A stretch of DNA of 64,000 bases, from the IMG/VR virus record IMGVR_UViG_3300042330_000854, positions 32,001-96,000 of that record; one strand, given 5' to 3'. Shown one piece after another: positions 2,965 to 47,737 of this stretch. Made by a program: the position numbers and the translations under genes. The notes under the pieces are model-generated. The model was not told the origin of the DNA. It made no database searches and saw only the letters and a program-made list of their open reading frames with translations. The stretch comes from a virus. How positions within the stretch are numbered: position 1 is the stretch's first letter; every line of letters starts with the position of its first letter.

Positions 2965-3038
2965 GCCGTTTAAGCTAACTTTAGTAGAAGCGCTTGCATG
3001 AAGAGCAAGAGGACTTGGCGCGAAACCAAGAAGCGGCA
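2965..3038 (+). tRNA. tRNA-Phe(GAA)
   Basis: GCCGTTT/AAGCGGC, CTTGC-ATGAAGA-GCAAG, T-loop CGCGAAA. Confidence 0.88.
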
Positions 3039-3170: not shown

Positions 3171-3210
3171 AACTCTTGACAAGAATGAAAATCAATGATA
3201 AATTATAATC

Positions 3211-3330
3211 ATTAATTACTACAAAATTCAATGTTTTCGATTTTAGCTTAAATATTGAATTGTTAATAGCGTGAAGCAAAACGCAATGCAGATGTAACAA
3301 AGCAAACAAAATCTTCTGCTAGTAATTGAT
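3211..3330 (+). ncRNA. Cloverleaf ncRNA, family D copy 2
   Basis: Same topology with compensatory changes (GCAGA/TCTGC, GCGT/ACGC); promoter TTGACA at 3176. Confidence 0.7.
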
Positions 3331-3392
3331 AATTCAAATCAGATAGTGATTTGAAAGTTTATGGTGATAGTTTTCACGCGATAAACAAATAT

Positions 3393-3423
3393 GCGGGCAT
3401 GGCGAAATAGCAGCCGCGACAAG
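3393..3423 (+). pseudogene. 5' fragment of a tRNA-Leu-like gene
   Basis: GCGGGCATGGCGAAATAGCAGCCGCGACAAG, then breaks off. Confidence 0.55.
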
Positions 3424-3450: not shown

Positions 3451-3592
3451 GCTCACGTATCCCAATCGGAAGAGGAAAACGACTCAATCCTGAGAAAAAG
3501 ACAAGTATTATTTAATACTTTCGGTGCAATTCCGATAAGGAAAAAAACAGAAAATCGTTTAGTTGTCGGTTCGAATCCGACCGTGAGTACCA
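3451..3592 (+). tRNA. tRNA-Leu(CAA) with a 65-nt insertion in the anticodon loop
   Basis: GCTCACG/CGTGAGT-A-CCA, anticodon stem AACGA/TCGTT, CTCAA[3488-3552]AA, canonical T-arm. Confidence 0.85.
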
Positions 3593-3604: not shown

Positions 3605-4087
3605 ATGACAAATAATAATGAAAAAACAATAGTTTCATCAAAAGTTTATAAAGATAAAAAATCTAAAAGATTAATACAACATATAAGATATTCAGATGGA
3701 ACAAGAAAAACACGTTCTTATCCAAGAACAATTATGGAAGAATATTTAGGAAGACCATTATTAGACGACGAAACAGTAGATCATATTGATGGTAATGTAG
3801 AAAATAATGATATTAGTAATTTACAATTATTGTCACGAGAAGAAAATGCCCGTAAAGGCGCTTTGGGAAATAAACATACATTAGGTCGTAAACAATCTGA
3901 AGAACATAAACGAAATGGTGCTAAAAACGGCCAAGCAAAATTAACAAATGAACAAGTAATTTATTATAGAAAATCTTATGAAGATAAATCTCTTACTAAA
4001 AATCAAATAATAGAATTAACAAACATGAGTAGGCCCGCTATTGAAAATATTTTAAATTACAAATCATATGTAAATACTAAAAACTAA
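3605..4087 (+). CDS. HNH homing endonuclease
   Basis: IMEEYLGRPL..VDHIDGNVENNDISNLQLLSREEN; C-terminal AKLTxEQV DNA-binding tail. Confidence 0.9.
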   Translation: MTNNNEKTIVSSKVYKDKKSKRLIQHIRYSDGTRKTRSYPRTIMEEYLGRPLLDDETVDHIDGNVENNDISNLQLLSREENARKGALGNKHTLGRKQSEEHKRNGAKNGQAKLTNEQVIYYRKSYEDKSLTKNQIIELTNMSRPAIENILNYKSYVNTKN

Positions 4088-4223: not shown

Positions 4224-4295
4224 CGGGGTATAGCTCAGAAGTAGAGTGTTCGCTTTGGAAGCGAAAGGCCGAAATTGCAAAATTTTCTACCCCGA
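4224..4295 (+). tRNA. tRNA-Pro(TGG)
   Basis: CGGGGTA/TACCCCG, TTCGC-TTTGGAA-GCGAA, T-loop TGCAAAA. Confidence 0.9.
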
Positions 4296-8041: not shown

Positions 8042-8114
8042 GGTAGTTGTGGCAGAAAAGTTATGCGACAGATTGTGAGTCTGTAATAAGCGAGAGCGTT
8101 ACTCGTCAACTACC
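8042..8114 (+). tRNA. tRNA-His(GTG)
   Basis: G-1:C73, ACAGA-TTGTGAG-TCTGT, T-loop AGCGTTA. Confidence 0.9.
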
Positions 8115-8137
8115 CGAAATTTATTGGGGATTTATCA

Positions 8138-8865: not shown

Positions 8866-9600
8866 ATGAGTTTAGCTTTATTTGATACAGAGGGGTTGCG
8901 TTTTCGACGCCAAACTGAATTACGATTACGTGAACAAATTAAAAATGAATTAGTAGAAAATATTCAACAAATTTTATTAGATATGAATCAAATGTGGCGT
9001 TTTGAAGAAGTTGAAACGCCATTAATTATGCCTAAAGAATTAATGAATGCAAGTTATGATCTTGATGATATTTTTGTTTTACAAAATAAAATAGCCAATA
9101 AAGATTATGCTTTACGTGCAGAAACAACATTAGGTTCTTATTTAATGGCTGTTGAATTACTTAAAACAACTTCAATTCGTGCTCCTTTGTGTGTTTATAC
9201 ACATGGGCCAAGTTTTCGAGTTGAAAATTCAGATGGGGCAACTGCTGCTAAATTACGGTTTAATCAATTTTATCAATTGGAATTTCAATTAATTTATGGT
9301 GCTGATACCAAAGCGCCGATTATTGAAACAATGATTGAAAAATTACCTACGGTAGTAAATAAAATTCTTAATAAATCTGTTAGAACAATTGAAAGTGATC
9401 GTTTGCCTTCTTATTCGATAGAAACAATTGATATTGAAGTTGAATGGTATTCTGAAACAGCAAAAAAGATGGAATTTAAAGAAATTGCCAGTATGAGTTT
9501 ACGCAAAGATTTTCCTTTAATTCCAGGCCATAAACCGTATCGTGTTTTTGAAATTGCTTTTGGAACTGATCGATTATTGGCTATGAAAAATGGCATTTGA
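8866..9600 (+). CDS. Stand-alone class II aminoacyl-tRNA synthetase catalytic core (alpha2 GlyRS-like), no anticodon-binding domain
   Basis: Motif 1 EVETP, LRAETT, motif 2 SFRVE..LRFNQFYQLEFQ, motif 3 EIAFGTDRLL; 244 aa. Confidence 0.85.
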   Translation: MSLALFDTEGLRFRRQTELRLREQIKNELVENIQQILLDMNQMWRFEEVETPLIMPKELMNASYDLDDIFVLQNKIANKDYALRAETTLGSYLMAVELLKTTSIRAPLCVYTHGPSFRVENSDGATAAKLRFNQFYQLEFQLIYGADTKAPIIETMIEKLPTVVNKILNKSVRTIESDRLPSYSIETIDIEVEWYSETAKKMEFKEIASMSLRKDFPLIPGHKPYRVFEIAFGTDRLLAMKNGI

Positions 9601-10833: not shown

Positions 10834-10906
10834 CACGCATTCGAATAATCAGTTAATTCAACAGACTTTCAATCTGTAAACGAGAGGGCAGAACTCTCAT
10901 GCGTGA
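10834..10906 (+). tRNA. tRNA-Glu(TTC)
   Basis: CACGCAT/ATGCGTG, ACAGA-CTTTCAA-TCTGT, T-loop GGCAGAA. Confidence 0.88.
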
Positions 10907-13925: not shown

Positions 13926-14312
13926 ATGAATAAATTATCAATAAAAGAATTAGAATTTTTATATAATATTTTAAATATTGAATATCATAATATGGTTAAT
14001 CAAAACAAAGATGATTTTGATGATAGATTTTATAATATTTGTATGGAAAAAATTTTACAATATCATGACAATAATAAAACATGTTTGAAATTATTAAAAG
14101 AAAAACATCAACAAATCAATTATTTTAATTCCAATATTAGAGTTATAAATCATAATTTTAACTTTAATAATTTTAATTCAATTGATGAAAATGAACTAAA
14201 TTACATCGTTATTTTAGAGCATAAAATATTAATTGTTGATTTACTATTGATTAATCCAGGATGTTATGATAAAATGAACATGAACCAAATTGTTGATATT
14301 TTACAAAATTGA
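13926..14312 (+). CDS. Hypothetical protein
   Basis: ORF. Confidence 0.6.
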   Translation: MNKLSIKELEFLYNILNIEYHNMVNQNKDDFDDRFYNICMEKILQYHDNNKTCLKLLKEKHQQINYFNSNIRVINHNFNFNNFNSIDENELNYIVILEHKILIVDLLLINPGCYDKMNMNQIVDILQN

Positions 14313-14665
14313 AAATAATATTATTAATTGGGCTGCCTGGAAGTGGCCAATCAACATATGGAAAAAGTTTAATCAAAGAAAATGTTTATTTCTTTGATGA
14401 AGATTTATTTAAAATTAATAATATTCCTGAAAATACAAAACTTTTAATTTTTGCCCATCCGTTGTTTTGTATAAAAGAAAAATTAAATCAATTTAAAGAA
14501 AAAATATTTTGTGAAATTGAAGAAGTTTATTTTGAAAACAATCCAGAACAATGTTTAAAAAATACAAAAAATAGAGATGGTAAACCATGTTATTCGAGCA
14601 TAAATTATTTGACTAAACAATATGTTATACCAAATAATGCTTATATTAAAAAATGTTATGAATAA
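14309..14665 (+). CDS. P-loop kinase (polynucleotide kinase-like) with a Walker A K-to-Q change
   Basis: IILLIGLPGSGQST; CLKNTKNR lid-like motif. Confidence 0.7.
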   Translation: MKIILLIGLPGSGQSTYGKSLIKENVYFFDEDLFKINNIPENTKLLIFAHPLFCIKEKLNQFKEKIFCEIEEVYFENNPEQCLKNTKNRDGKPCYSSINYLTKQYVIPNNAYIKKCYE

Positions 14666-14675
14666 AATATTAAAT

Positions 14676-14762
14676 GGATAGTTAGTAGAGTGGTCGATTG
14701 CGCTACATTGGAAATGTAGAGAACCTGTAAAGGTTCCAGGGGTTCAAATCCTCTACTATCCG
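14676..14762 (+). tRNA. tRNA-Ser(GGA)
   Basis: CTACA-TTGGAAA-TGTAG, long variable arm, G73. Confidence 0.92.
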
Positions 14763-14811
14763 CAAAATTATTGTTGACATGTAAATAAAATAATAGTATA
14801 GTAAAATTATT

Positions 14812-15640
14812 GGTGTGTTGGCCGAGAGTATTATAGTTATTAAATTAATAGAGAGATTATAAATGTTTATATGTGAGTTTGGTTGTGGCAAGATTGCTAT
14901 TCATCAGTTTAAATCTAGTCATAAATGGTGTTGTTCAACAAACGTGAATACTTGTGTCGGTCATAGAGAAAAAATATCTAAATCAAAAAAGGGTATAAAT
15001 CCTTTTCTTGGAAGAGAACACCCAAGAGGCATGAAAGGGAAAATTCATATATTCAAGGGAAAAACTTATGAAGAAATTTTTGGAGATAGGGCTTCTATTA
15101 TTAAATCTAAAATTTCTAATAGTTTAAAAGGAAATACTAATTGGTCAAATGTCGATGAAATAATTAAAATTTTACATGCAGAACGTGCTCGTGAACGTAT
15201 ATTGAAACGATATGAAGCTGGGTGGCAACCTAAAGCTGGACGCTGCACCAAATATACATATGAGAGTAAGATAGCAGGAAAAATATTAGTAGATGGTACT
15301 TGGGAATTAGAAGTAGCAAAATGGTTAGATAGCAAATGTTTAAATTGGAAACGAAACACGAAAAGATTTCCTTATACTAATATAGAAGAAAAAATAAGTC
15401 ATTATACACCTGATTTTTGGATTGAAGAATGGGATTCATATTTAGAAATTAAGGGATACGAAACAGATTTAGATCGTTGTAAATGGGCGCAATTTAAAGA
15501 AAATTTAATAGTATGGTATAAAAAAGATATAGACAAAATTATTAAAGATAATAAACTTTTATCTAGCTACATATGCATATAGTTTTAGACGTTGAAGGTA
15601 GTAACCCTGTCTTCCAAAAGTTCAAATCTTTTACACACCG
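14812..15640 (+). pseudogene. tRNA-Ser-like gene interrupted by an endonuclease ORF
   Basis: 5' piece GGTGTGTTGGCCGAG (14812-); 3' piece ACGTT, variable arm, AAAAG-TTCAAAT-CTTTT, ACACACC-G (to 15640); acceptor strands pair perfectly. Confidence 0.8.
14863..15582 (+). CDS. Putative homing endonuclease (Zn-finger, NUMOD-like, PD-(D/E)XK)
   Basis: CEFGCG..CCS N-terminus; GTWE..YTPDFWI..YLEIKGY. Confidence 0.85.
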   Translation: MFICEFGCGKIAIHQFKSSHKWCCSTNVNTCVGHREKISKSKKGINPFLGREHPRGMKGKIHIFKGKTYEEIFGDRASIIKSKISNSLKGNTNWSNVDEIIKILHAERARERILKRYEAGWQPKAGRCTKYTYESKIAGKILVDGTWELEVAKWLDSKCLNWKRNTKRFPYTNIEEKISHYTPDFWIEEWDSYLEIKGYETDLDRCKWAQFKENLIVWYKKDIDKIIKDNKLLSSYICI

Positions 15641-46742: not shown

Positions 46743-47087
46743 CTAATTTTGTAACAACCATAAACTTTCATCCAATTCATTTTTAAACTCAAGCCATAAA
46801 TGTATGTAATTAATATTATCATTTTTATTATTAATAATATCATAACATAAATTCATATTTAATTTTTTAGTTGCTAATATTAATCCGATAATAAACGGCA
46901 TATTATCAGCTTGAAATTCATAATAATTTAGGATTACGTTTTCAATAAAAATATTATTATTTGTATATTTTTTAAAATTATTAATATCATCATCATTAAC
47001 TTTATATCTATAACTTTCTGATATATCAATTTTAGATAATTTTAATTTATCTAATCTTATTCTATCATTTAATGTAAATTTTAACAT
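46743..47087 (-). CDS. Hypothetical protein with shared C-terminal tag
   Basis: Ends FKNELDESLWLLQN. Confidence 0.7.
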   Translation of the reverse strand: MLKFTLNDRIRLDKLKLSKIDISESYRYKVNDDDINNFKKYTNNNIFIENVILNYYEFQADNMPFIIGLILATKKLNMNLCYDIINNKNDNINYIHLWLEFKNELDESLWLLQN

Positions 47088-47737
47088 TTATCGTCTTTCA
47101 AGTTATTCTGAGTCCAATTTTTACTCCAATGTTCATTTGTTTGAACATGATTTTTTCTAACATATTTTGCCACATTTAATTTAAAATTATCATAATGAAA
47201 ACTATCGACTGTTCTAATTACAAATCCTTCATTGTTAATTGTATCAAAATTTTTAATTAATTGTTGGATAGTTTTTTCAGAATAAATTCCACGATAAATT
47301 GTTTCTACTGAAACGATATTTAATAATTCAAACCATTCTAATGTAGTGTTCCAATCAAGACAAATCTTATTATCCCAAACTGAAAAACTATAAAAGAAAG
47401 ATTTCAAATCTTGATAATCGATACTATGTTTTGCAAATAAATTTTCACCACAAATACGAAAATTTTCTGGAATATTATGTTTTATTTGAGAATGGTAATT
47501 TTTAACCCAATCTCTACTTGGATGATGTTTTGAATCCAAAGAACGTGCATGAAAATAATCATGATAAAAATTTGTATTTTCCCCATCCATTTTCAAAGTT
47601 ATAACAACTTCTTTATTTTCAAAGAAAGAAATATCTGGATGAATTTTATCGTCATCGGTAAATCCTTCGCTTAAAGGATGATGATAAGTTCTTGGATATT
47701 TTATTTTTTCAGAAACCATGATTTTATTTCTTTCCAA
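47081..47737 (-). CDS. ATP-dependent RNA ligase family protein
   Basis: KYPRTYH, motif I KMDGEN, CGEN, EGFVIR, AKYVR. Confidence 0.88.
   Translation of the reverse strand: MERNKIMVSEKIKYPRTYHHPLSEGFTDDDKIHPDISFFENKEVVITLKMDGENTNFYHDYFHARSLDSKHHPSRDWVKNYHSQIKHNIPENFRICGENLFAKHSIDYQDLKSFFYSFSVWDNKICLDWNTTLEWFELLNIVSVETIYRGIYSEKTIQQLIKNFDTINNEGFVIRTVDSFHYDNFKLNVAKYVRKNHVQTNEHWSKNWTQNNLKDDKC

Follow-up and report, generated by a model that had tools for sequence, protein, structure and literature searches.

In Bacteria and their viruses, tRNA introns are generally regarded as group I introns that splice themselves, whereas introns spliced by proteins are characteristic of the tRNAs of Archaea and Eukarya. 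Group I introns of the self-splicing kind measure about 200 nt or more and are built on a P3-P9 core with a G-binding site; group II introns have six domains, among them domain V. Those of cyanobacterial tRNA-Leu(UAA) and Azoarcus tRNA-Ile interrupt the anticodon loop, often of a tRNA-Leu, and are associated with mobility and homing endonucleases. Archaeal and eukaryal tRNA introns are cut by EndA or Sen at a bulge-helix-bulge, in which a 4-bp helix at the splice sites is flanked by two 3-nt bulges, and sealed by RtcB or Trl1. Phage T4 in turn uses Pnk and Rnl1 to reseal the anticodon loop of tRNA-Lys after cleavage by the host anticodon nuclease PrrC, a reaction that repairs damage and removes no intron. 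Zeng, Bonocora and Shub reportedly described in 2009 a free-standing HNH endonuclease, F-CphI, encoded beside the intron-containing psbA gene of cyanophage S-PM2 and acting in collaborative homing.

Devoto et al. (2019, PMC6784885; Table S6, Fig. 4) reported a further kind of interruption, the 'enigmatic' introns in tRNAs of the Lak megaphages, and remarked that one of them might adopt a tRNA fold of its own. These introns are highly conserved, unclassifiable by Rfam and of unknown mode of removal (PMC6784885). The intron in the Lak tRNA-Tyr, as given in Table S6 of that paper, is 93 nt long and carries a canonical T arm beside an acceptor-like stem (PMC6784885). This remark appears to be the only published precedent that we found for the element presented here.

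Here we present a tRNA gene of an uncultured phage that is split in its anticodon loop by a short structured insert, together with a second copy of this insert in another tRNA gene of the same genome. The window, that is the whole stretch of 64,000 nucleotides analysed, comprises bases 32001-96000 of a 108,076-bp IMG/VR virus record with a G+C content of 27% and a CheckV completeness of 33%. The record is part of the genome of a tailed jumbo phage that infects a bacterium, because it encodes a T4-type large terminase, a tail sheath and a peptidoglycan peptidase, and because it contains many promoter-like sites of the sigma-70 type (TTGACA-17-TAnnnT); a DnaB-like helicase and a primase-like protein are encoded as well. 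Among the sequencing runs searched, DNA matching this phage was found in lake-water metagenomes only, and none of the runs that contain it is an RNA run. Tail-sheath and terminase searches returned no close kin. The relatives recovered with a terminase profile share about 40% identity, and their 1.1 Mb of flanking sequence holds no comparable split tRNA; terminases at 43-48% identity (P0002, P0004, P0005 and P0006) sit on contigs of 320-517 kb.

The split gene was recognized by both Rfam and ARAGORN. Window positions 3451-3589 match the Rfam tRNA family (RF00005) end to end, over model positions 1-71, with 39.8 bits against a gathering score of 29, the alignment placing 69 nt as an insertion at the anticodon loop. 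When introns are allowed, ARAGORN calls a tRNA of 77 nt that has the anticodon CAA and is interrupted by an intron of 65 nt. Both results bear out a sequence-only reading of this DNA, which had proposed a tRNA interrupted by a 65-nt insert in the anticodon loop, and a base-by-base check of the coordinates of the split tRNA and of the insert parts (Table 1) found the canonical T-loop, the encoded CCA and the insert elements at the positions which that reading had given. The D arm of the gene consists of 3 bp plus a C13.A22 mismatch and a 9-nt loop, AAUCGGAAG; its T arm is canonical (GUCGG UUCGAAU CCGAC); and its variable loop, UAGUU, has 5 nt, so that a long (type II) arm is absent. Contigs from four independent lake-water runs carry the locus with zero differences and without any insert-less form. 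Since these independent assemblies cover the locus unchanged, the possibility of an assembly error, raised in the earlier reading, is excluded. A joined, insert-free form of the locus was found neither in the DNA contigs of the four runs nor in the collections scanned. Between a promoter-like site (3177-3205) and the split tRNA lies a further structured element (3271-3380, closed by CGTGAA...TTTCACG), which is probably co-transcribed with the split tRNA and the HNH gene downstream.

Table 1. Features of the split tRNA locus and associated genes. Positions refer to the window, except those preceded by G000:C1, which refer to the phage's own record.
Feature	Position	Strand	Details
Relic of upstream tRNA-Leu gene	3381..3402	+	22 nt; 96% identical to leader plus first 10 nt of upstream tRNA-Leu gene (blastn within genome)
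5' exon	3451..3486	+	Acceptor 5' strand, D arm, AACGA, CUCA (Rfam alignment, ARAGORN cloverleaf)
5' exon end, alternative	3484	+	If cut follows U33
Acceptor stem	3451-3457 with 3582-3588	+	7 bp
Anticodon stem	3478-3482 with 3555-3559	+	5 bp; AACGA 5' strand, UCGUU 3' strand
Loop nucleotides CTCA	3483-3486	+	
Insert (putative mini-intron)	3487..3551	+	65 nt, in the register joining CUCA to AAA
Closing stem P1, 5' strand	3487..3491	+	AUCCU; pairs with 3538-3542 (AGGAA)
Purine-rich joining strand	3492..3502	+	11 nt; GAGAAAAAGAC; upstream copy AAGAAAUAGGC
AU-rich hairpin HP1	3503..3520	+	7-8 bp; stem identical in both copies
T-arm-like hairpin HP2	3521..3535	+	UCGG / UGCAAUU / CCGA; consensus fold
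Closing stem P1, 3' strand	3538..3542	+	
A-rich 3' joining strand with 3' junction	3543..3554	+	12 nt; 7 nt in upstream copy
3' exon	3552..3592	+	AAA, UCGUU, variable loop, T arm, acceptor 3' strand, A73, CCA
Encoded ACCA	3589-3592	+	
Free-standing HNH endonuclease gene	3605..4087	+	160 aa; Pfam HNH_3 5.2e-10; 15 PHROG HNH families
RNA ligase gene	47081..47737	-	218 aa, nucleotidyltransferase domain only; PF09414 105 bits; phrog_24030 1.2e-75
Second insert copy	G000:C1:31235-31295		61 nt; splits upstream tRNA
Upstream tRNA-Leu(CAA)	G000:C1:31198-31342		Type II, 3-bp variable arm

A search of the phage's own record with the insert revealed a second copy 4.2 kb upstream, outside the window (match G000:C1:31241-31305). 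The two inserts are 84-85% identical and occupy the same anticodon-loop site in their tRNA genes. With its 3-bp long variable arm the upstream gene is a classical type-II tRNA-Leu; it matches the Rfam tRNA model with 28.8 bits (E 2.7e-4) while carrying two insertions. Both tRNA bodies are intact, each having an acceptor stem of 7 bp, an anticodon stem of 5 bp, a canonical T arm and a GG in the D loop, and yet their exons agree at only about 50% and the two acceptor stems differ. Because the inserts agree at 85% against about 50% for the exons, it would seem that the insert either moved between the genes or is under a stronger constraint of its own. A covariance model built from the two copies (R1) found no third copy in the 108-kb record. 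No endonuclease gene lies beside the upstream copy. The short relic upstream of the window's gene (Table 1) is a trace of duplication or recombination at the locus.

Comparison of the two copies provides direct support for an RNA fold. From the anticodon stem inwards, the order is CUCA, the closing stem P1, the 11-nt purine-rich strand, HP1, HP2, a UA dinucleotide joining HP2 to the 3' strand of P1, the A-rich strand and the other side of the anticodon stem. This three-helix arrangement is the minimum-energy fold of each insert alone and also the consensus of the pair, although the folding energy is unremarkable relative to shuffled sequence (z -1.2 to -1.8). In the two-copy alignment 31 of 32 cells hold standard pairs, as opposed to at most 53% when the partners are slid. 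The copies have diverged by 12 substitutions and one indel, and in this one pair of sequences from a single genome no pair of the window's copy is broken while three pairs have changed on both sides: two of the five in P1 (columns 12-64 and 14-62) and one in HP2, where a G-C pair of the window's copy is A-U in the upstream copy. When 12 substitutions were placed at random in simulation, at least three compensated pairs arose with P ~5e-4 and no broken pair with P ~0.004. The closing stem had earlier been read as TCCT/AGGA; a stem is indeed present, but is better read as five pairs, in one register in both copies. The T-arm-like TCGG-TGCAATT-CCGA hairpin is at its stated place and belongs to the fold common to both copies. 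Given this shared fold and the T-loop-like UGCAAUU, the module looks like a small cloverleaf without a D arm; the UGCAAUU loop resembles the UGCAAAA T-loops of the phage's own tRNA-Trp and tRNA-Pro. The start of the closing stem lies in both copies exactly 4 nt (CUCA) past the anticodon stem, and AAA precedes the 3' strand of the anticodon stem, so that one rule yields the 7-nt loop CUCAAAA in both. The D loop (3465-3471, AUCGGAA) is also perfectly complementary over 7 nt to the insert (3530-3536, UUCCGAU), and this pairing forms in the minimum-energy structure of the entire precursor; we take it as chance rather than as a functional pairing because it is reduced to 4 nt in the upstream copy.

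The insert fits no known intron or ribozyme family. Searched alone against Rfam, it matched no family at E up to 10, the tRNA model included. There was no Intron_gpI match at that threshold, and 61-65 nt without a core is far from a group I intron; the group II search yielded only a chance match to the model of a D1-D4 fragment, with 12.7-16.5 bits against a cut-off of 49. The earlier judgement that the insert is too short for a group I or II intron is therefore upheld by its size and by the Rfam result. A bulge-helix-bulge (BHB) intron was rejected because the junction strands, a 4-nt strand opposite an A-rich strand of 7-12 nt, share one single internal loop, and because the 3' end of the intron shows no complementarity to the loop. 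Covariance models of the hammerhead, hairpin, twister, pistol, hatchet and HDV ribozymes gave no match at E up to 10; the lengths of the junction strands (11, 0 and 2 nt) do not agree with a hammerhead core, and the hairpin-ribozyme layout, compared by eye and with Rfam, does not fit either. Homologues were equally absent from the collections scanned. Exact-pattern scans of viral contigs found none; in metagenome contigs the pattern had two chance matches, both inside coding sequence, and in prokaryote genomes one, on a 6,160-bp contig already among the metagenome matches. Distant blastn against cultured phages matched the tRNA exon halves and not the insert, and model R1 found no copy in five large viral records with related terminases. 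Since no known family accounts for the insert, the phage must remove or use it by a route that has yet to be demonstrated in bacteria or their viruses.

The nearest resemblance is to the Lak introns. As there, a short, ORF-less insert that belongs to no Rfam class lies in the anticodon region of tRNAs of a very large AT-rich phage, and its closing stem and T-arm-like hairpin may correspond to the acceptor-like stem and T arm seen in at least one of them. The present element has no sequence similarity to the Lak introns, is 61-65 nt long instead of the 93 nt of the tRNA-Tyr intron, and contains an additional long AU hairpin. It also differs from the tRNA-Tyr intron listed there in having a 5-bp acceptor-like stem, a 2-nt UA linker, the non-canonical loop UGCAAUU and no CCA. 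Finally, the occurrence of one element in two tRNA genes of a single genome, with an HNH gene adjoining, sets it apart from the Lak introns as far as that account describes them. With group I introns the element shares its anticodon-loop site, often in tRNA-Leu, and probably mobility and an association with homing endonucleases, but neither their length nor their P3-P9 core nor any Rfam match.

Which tRNA the window's gene encodes depends on where the halves are joined, and the A-rich 3' side of the insert leaves its register ambiguous by up to 2 nt (alternative 3485-3549). With a cut after CUCA and a 3' exon starting from AAA, both genes acquire the loop CUCAAAA and the anticodon CAA; with a cut after U33 the upstream gene still reads CAA and the window's gene reads GAA (Phe). 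The joined sequence predicted for the window's gene is ACGACTCAAAATCGTT in the leucine reading and ACGACTGAAAATCGTT in the phenylalanine reading, and that of the upstream gene is ACGTTCTCAAAAAACGT. Predicted joined lengths are 77 nt (window's gene) and 84 nt (upstream gene), the unspliced forms measuring 142 nt and 145 nt, respectively.

For the window's gene leucine is probably the better reading, for several reasons: alignments by Rfam and ARAGORN show that it has A73, A15-U48, G18G19 and A20a, the E. coli leucine identity set; tRNA-Leu accounts for 8 of the 15 annotated matches to phage tRNAs that were listed for its 3' half; its alignment with the upstream Leu gene does not stop at the insert but extends into the 3' exon, a pattern resembling the loss of part of the variable arm; and a normal tRNA-Phe(GAA) already exists at window 2965-3038, 413 nt upstream of the split gene. 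All four points count at the same time against the less likely alternative of a tRNA-Phe(GAA), in which the insert follows U33, the 3' exon supplies GAA-AA and the upstream gene stays CAA, as does a D arm of leucine type with 3 bp and N13.A22. That alternative draws on the 5 nt preceding the 3' stem strand, which are GAAAA in the window's gene and CAAAA in the upstream gene, and on the short variable loop, which makes a type-I tRNA like Phe; A73 is equally compatible with it. The E. coli leucine identity set works without a long variable arm or the anticodon, and an A36A37A38 motif, which the loop CUCAAAA holds, has been described for tRNA-Leu(CAA) (PMC9976931). A leucine tRNA with a 5-nt variable loop would nevertheless be unusual for a bacterial system. 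The original naming of the gene as tRNA-Leu(CAA) thus keeps the leucine identity set and the CAA of the CUCA register on its side, but has to reckon with the missing long variable arm and with Phe(GAA) as a candidate.

The gene directly downstream of the window's split tRNA encodes a free-standing HNH endonuclease. Its ATG, at 3605, lies exactly 12 nt past the tRNA CCA and is preceded by an AGAGGA ribosome-binding site, so that the coordinates together with the Pfam HNH_3 match confirm the adjacent gene that the sequence-only reading had pointed out. No promoter-like site was found between the tRNA and the HNH gene. The homologues of the protein are free-standing phage HNH genes, which in cultured phages lie in ordinary gene neighbourhoods and do not adjoin tRNAs. 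At about window 3658 (L006 position 4759), one contig of run X10 lacks 7 nt in the HNH frame (depth 2.6/5.6), possibly a frameshifted HNH allele in the population.

The enzymes that could act on the RNA were sought in the same genome. The RNA ligase announced from sequence is indeed encoded in the window, with a domain of the Rnl2 family, and no solved structure matches it in sequence. As a candidate for the sealing step it lies 43 kb from the tRNA, to which only the shared genome links it. In contrast, the PNK-like protein named alongside it did not hold up: what was noticed is a Walker-A N-terminus in a 118-aa ORF (14309-14665) that stays below threshold. The first 25 residues of this ORF resemble the P-loop of phage polynucleotide kinase, and it may be a truncated or split Pnk. 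It is followed by a tRNA-Ser (14676-14763) and then by a NUMOD3 gene of homing-endonuclease type (14863-15582). A metallophosphoesterase gene lies outside the window. EndA, RtcB and Rnl1 are absent from the 108-kb record, which represents a genome 33% complete, and no endonuclease candidate for excising the insert was identified.

Taking these observations together, we give about even credence to the reading of the insert as a spliced, mobile, ORF-less structured mini-intron of the Lak 'enigmatic' tRNA-intron kind. A conserved, mobile, intron-like element is favoured because a second copy occupies the same site, three pairs covary, the tRNA bodies are intact and the joined loop would be the canonical CUCAAAA. 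The account that we infer, as to mobility, the role of the HNH protein, excision, exact junctions and enzymes, is as follows. At the DNA level, the insert would have entered two tRNA(CAA) genes at one anticodon-loop spot, or have been copied between them. The HNH endonuclease abutting the window's copy probably aided this spread: in the manner of collaborative homing, it would cleave insert-free alleles at a sequence that the insert disrupts. As with F-CphI and psbA, the interrupted gene is followed immediately by a free-standing HNH gene, and the intron would shield the phage's own allele; there, however, the intron is a group I intron in a protein gene, whereas here the HNH target is predicted and the upstream copy has no endonuclease gene.

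At the RNA level, the insert would be transcribed together with the tRNA, and its module would present the junction strands, CUCA and the A-run, as an internal loop atop the anticodon stem. Proteins would cut both junction strands, and an RNA ligase, of the phage or of the host, would rejoin the halves to give the loop CUCAAAA in both genes. The proposed protein-dependent cutting and ligation resembles the removal of archaeal and eukaryal tRNA introns, from which the element differs by the lack of a BHB, a position other than 37/38, a bacterial host and the absence of EndA and RtcB from the record. It likewise resembles T4 repair in that a phage RNA ligase would reseal a broken anticodon loop, with the difference that the domain here is of the Rnl2 family and neither Rnl1 nor a supported Pnk accompanies it. 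The earlier reading had offered four alternatives, namely a protein-spliced mini-intron, a tRNA activated by nuclease cutting plus ligation, a double-elbow decoy and an insert that shields the gene from the HNH protein. The first of these is the one favoured here and the last has a precedent, which complements the intron reading because it concerns the spread of DNA and not the fate of the RNA; the PNK part is unsupported.

The geometry of the two copies bears on how such cuts might be placed. In both, the predicted 5' cut falls at the 5' base of the acceptor-like stem, which is the point at which RNase P would cleave if the substrate resembled a tRNA. Between the closing stem and the 3' junction there are 9 nt in the window's copy and 4 nt in the upstream copy, and because this distance differs the 3' site cannot be set by the module. 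Excision by RNase P and RNase Z flush with the module was considered and rejected: the 5' side fits, but the 3' cut leaves loops of 10-15 nt. RNase P and RNase Z alone would be insufficient, since the 3' site must be measured from the tRNA body. As a more tentative generalization, to which we attach clearly less confidence than to the mini-intron itself, large phages may splice tRNAs by proteins, a D-arm-less, tRNA-shaped insert marking the cuts (the 5' one RNase P-like, the 3' one measured from the body) and an Rnl2-type ligase resealing them.

Explanations that dispense with splicing are less probable. One is that the unspliced 142-nt RNA is itself the product, serving either as a scaffold or as a decoy or sponge for a tRNA-binding protein such as a host anticodon nuclease. 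The intact top half of the tRNA with its encoded CCA, the insert structure conserved between copies and the failure to identify a splicing enzyme in the record would all suit such an RNA, as would the surrounding 5 kb, an island of unusual small RNAs and non-canonical tRNAs. The tRNAs of phages can counteract defences that cleave tRNAs (PMC10264068), which would suit an unspliced product as well. A decoy would nevertheless need neither flanks that rejoin to a canonical Leu(CAA) loop nor a perfect 5-bp anticodon stem, both of which are present, although descent from an interrupted loop would also leave such flanks. Moreover, the split genes are the only leucine tRNAs among about 20 tRNAs in the 108-kb record, in which TTG accounts for 12% of leucine codons. 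We consider an unspliced product unlikely.

Still less probable is that both tRNA genes are dead, the insert being a selfish DNA element, perhaps spread by HNH-driven repair and tolerated since the host supplies tRNA-Leu. The recombination relic upstream and the adjacent HNH gene are in keeping with this, as are the lack in the window's tRNA of the long variable arm expected in bacterial tRNA-Leu and the lack of relatives that would show conservation over time. Selection on an RNA fold, as seen in 12 substitutions and one indel with zero broken and three compensated pairs, is hard to explain for junk, however; both cloverleaves are still perfect, and the insert has neither terminal inverted repeats nor a target duplication. 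For the same reasons, that is the second copy, the covariation and the intact tRNA bodies, the pseudogene that the earlier reading had allowed for is unlikely. The least probable explanation is a new and very small ribozyme that would cleave or splice itself, with no protein needed for the cutting, for which a conserved three-way junction, a purine-rich strand, an internal loop flanking the junctions and the want of an endonuclease candidate speak, but which is made very improbable by the absence of any Rfam match for the insert alone at E up to 10, by junction strands (11, 0 and 2 nt) unlike the hammerhead core, by the need for a single 61-nt RNA to cut two sites, and by a G in the 3' strand of the window's copy that is missing from the upstream copy.

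The split gene has unusual neighbours. Bacterial tRNAs with long variable arms are normally those for Leu, Ser and Tyr only; here, tRNA-Lys(UUU) at 1808-1891 (84 nt) and tRNA-Asn(GUU) at 2022-2111 (90 nt) possess long extra (variable) regions. Non-canonical T-loops occur in the tRNAs at 2156-2227, 4224-4295, 1942-2016, 8043-8115, 2965-3038 and 10834-10906; they read UGCAAAA in Trp and Pro and GCGUUAC, GCGAAAC and GGCAGAA in others, and such tRNAs are missed by default ARAGORN and detected by Rfam. At 2429-2782, four tandem small-RNA-like units follow a perfect TTGACA-17-TATAAT site, each with a terminal stem, a TTCNGCAAA strand and an inner hairpin, and without an Rfam match. A 244-aa protein (8866-9600) scores 26.5 bits, below the cut-off of 29.3, against tRNA-synt_2b, the core of class II aminoacyl-tRNA synthetases, and 18 kb upstream of the tRNA island lies a gene for a DUF2828/DUF7788 protein (L007:95-1477; G000:C1:12095-13477, minus strand).

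As a test case the locus has the weakness of belonging to an uncultured phage with no close relatives in collections. What it adds to the Lak precedent is one element in two very different tRNA bodies, which gives the fold direct covariation support, a geometric rule that predicts the 5' cut from the position of the closing stem immediately after CUCA, and a short-variable-arm tRNA that carries the leucine identity set. A folded insert without a ribozyme core in intact phage tRNA genes would imply either an undescribed route of excision, in which enzymes of tRNA processing and RNA repair are plausibly put to a second use, or a class of tRNA-framed RNAs that serve some other function. If large phages do splice tRNAs by proteins in the way proposed, this would add a third route of tRNA-intron removal to self-splicing and cleavage by the BHB endonuclease, and would establish a connection between homing endonucleases, the enzymes of RNA repair and the tRNA islands of phages.
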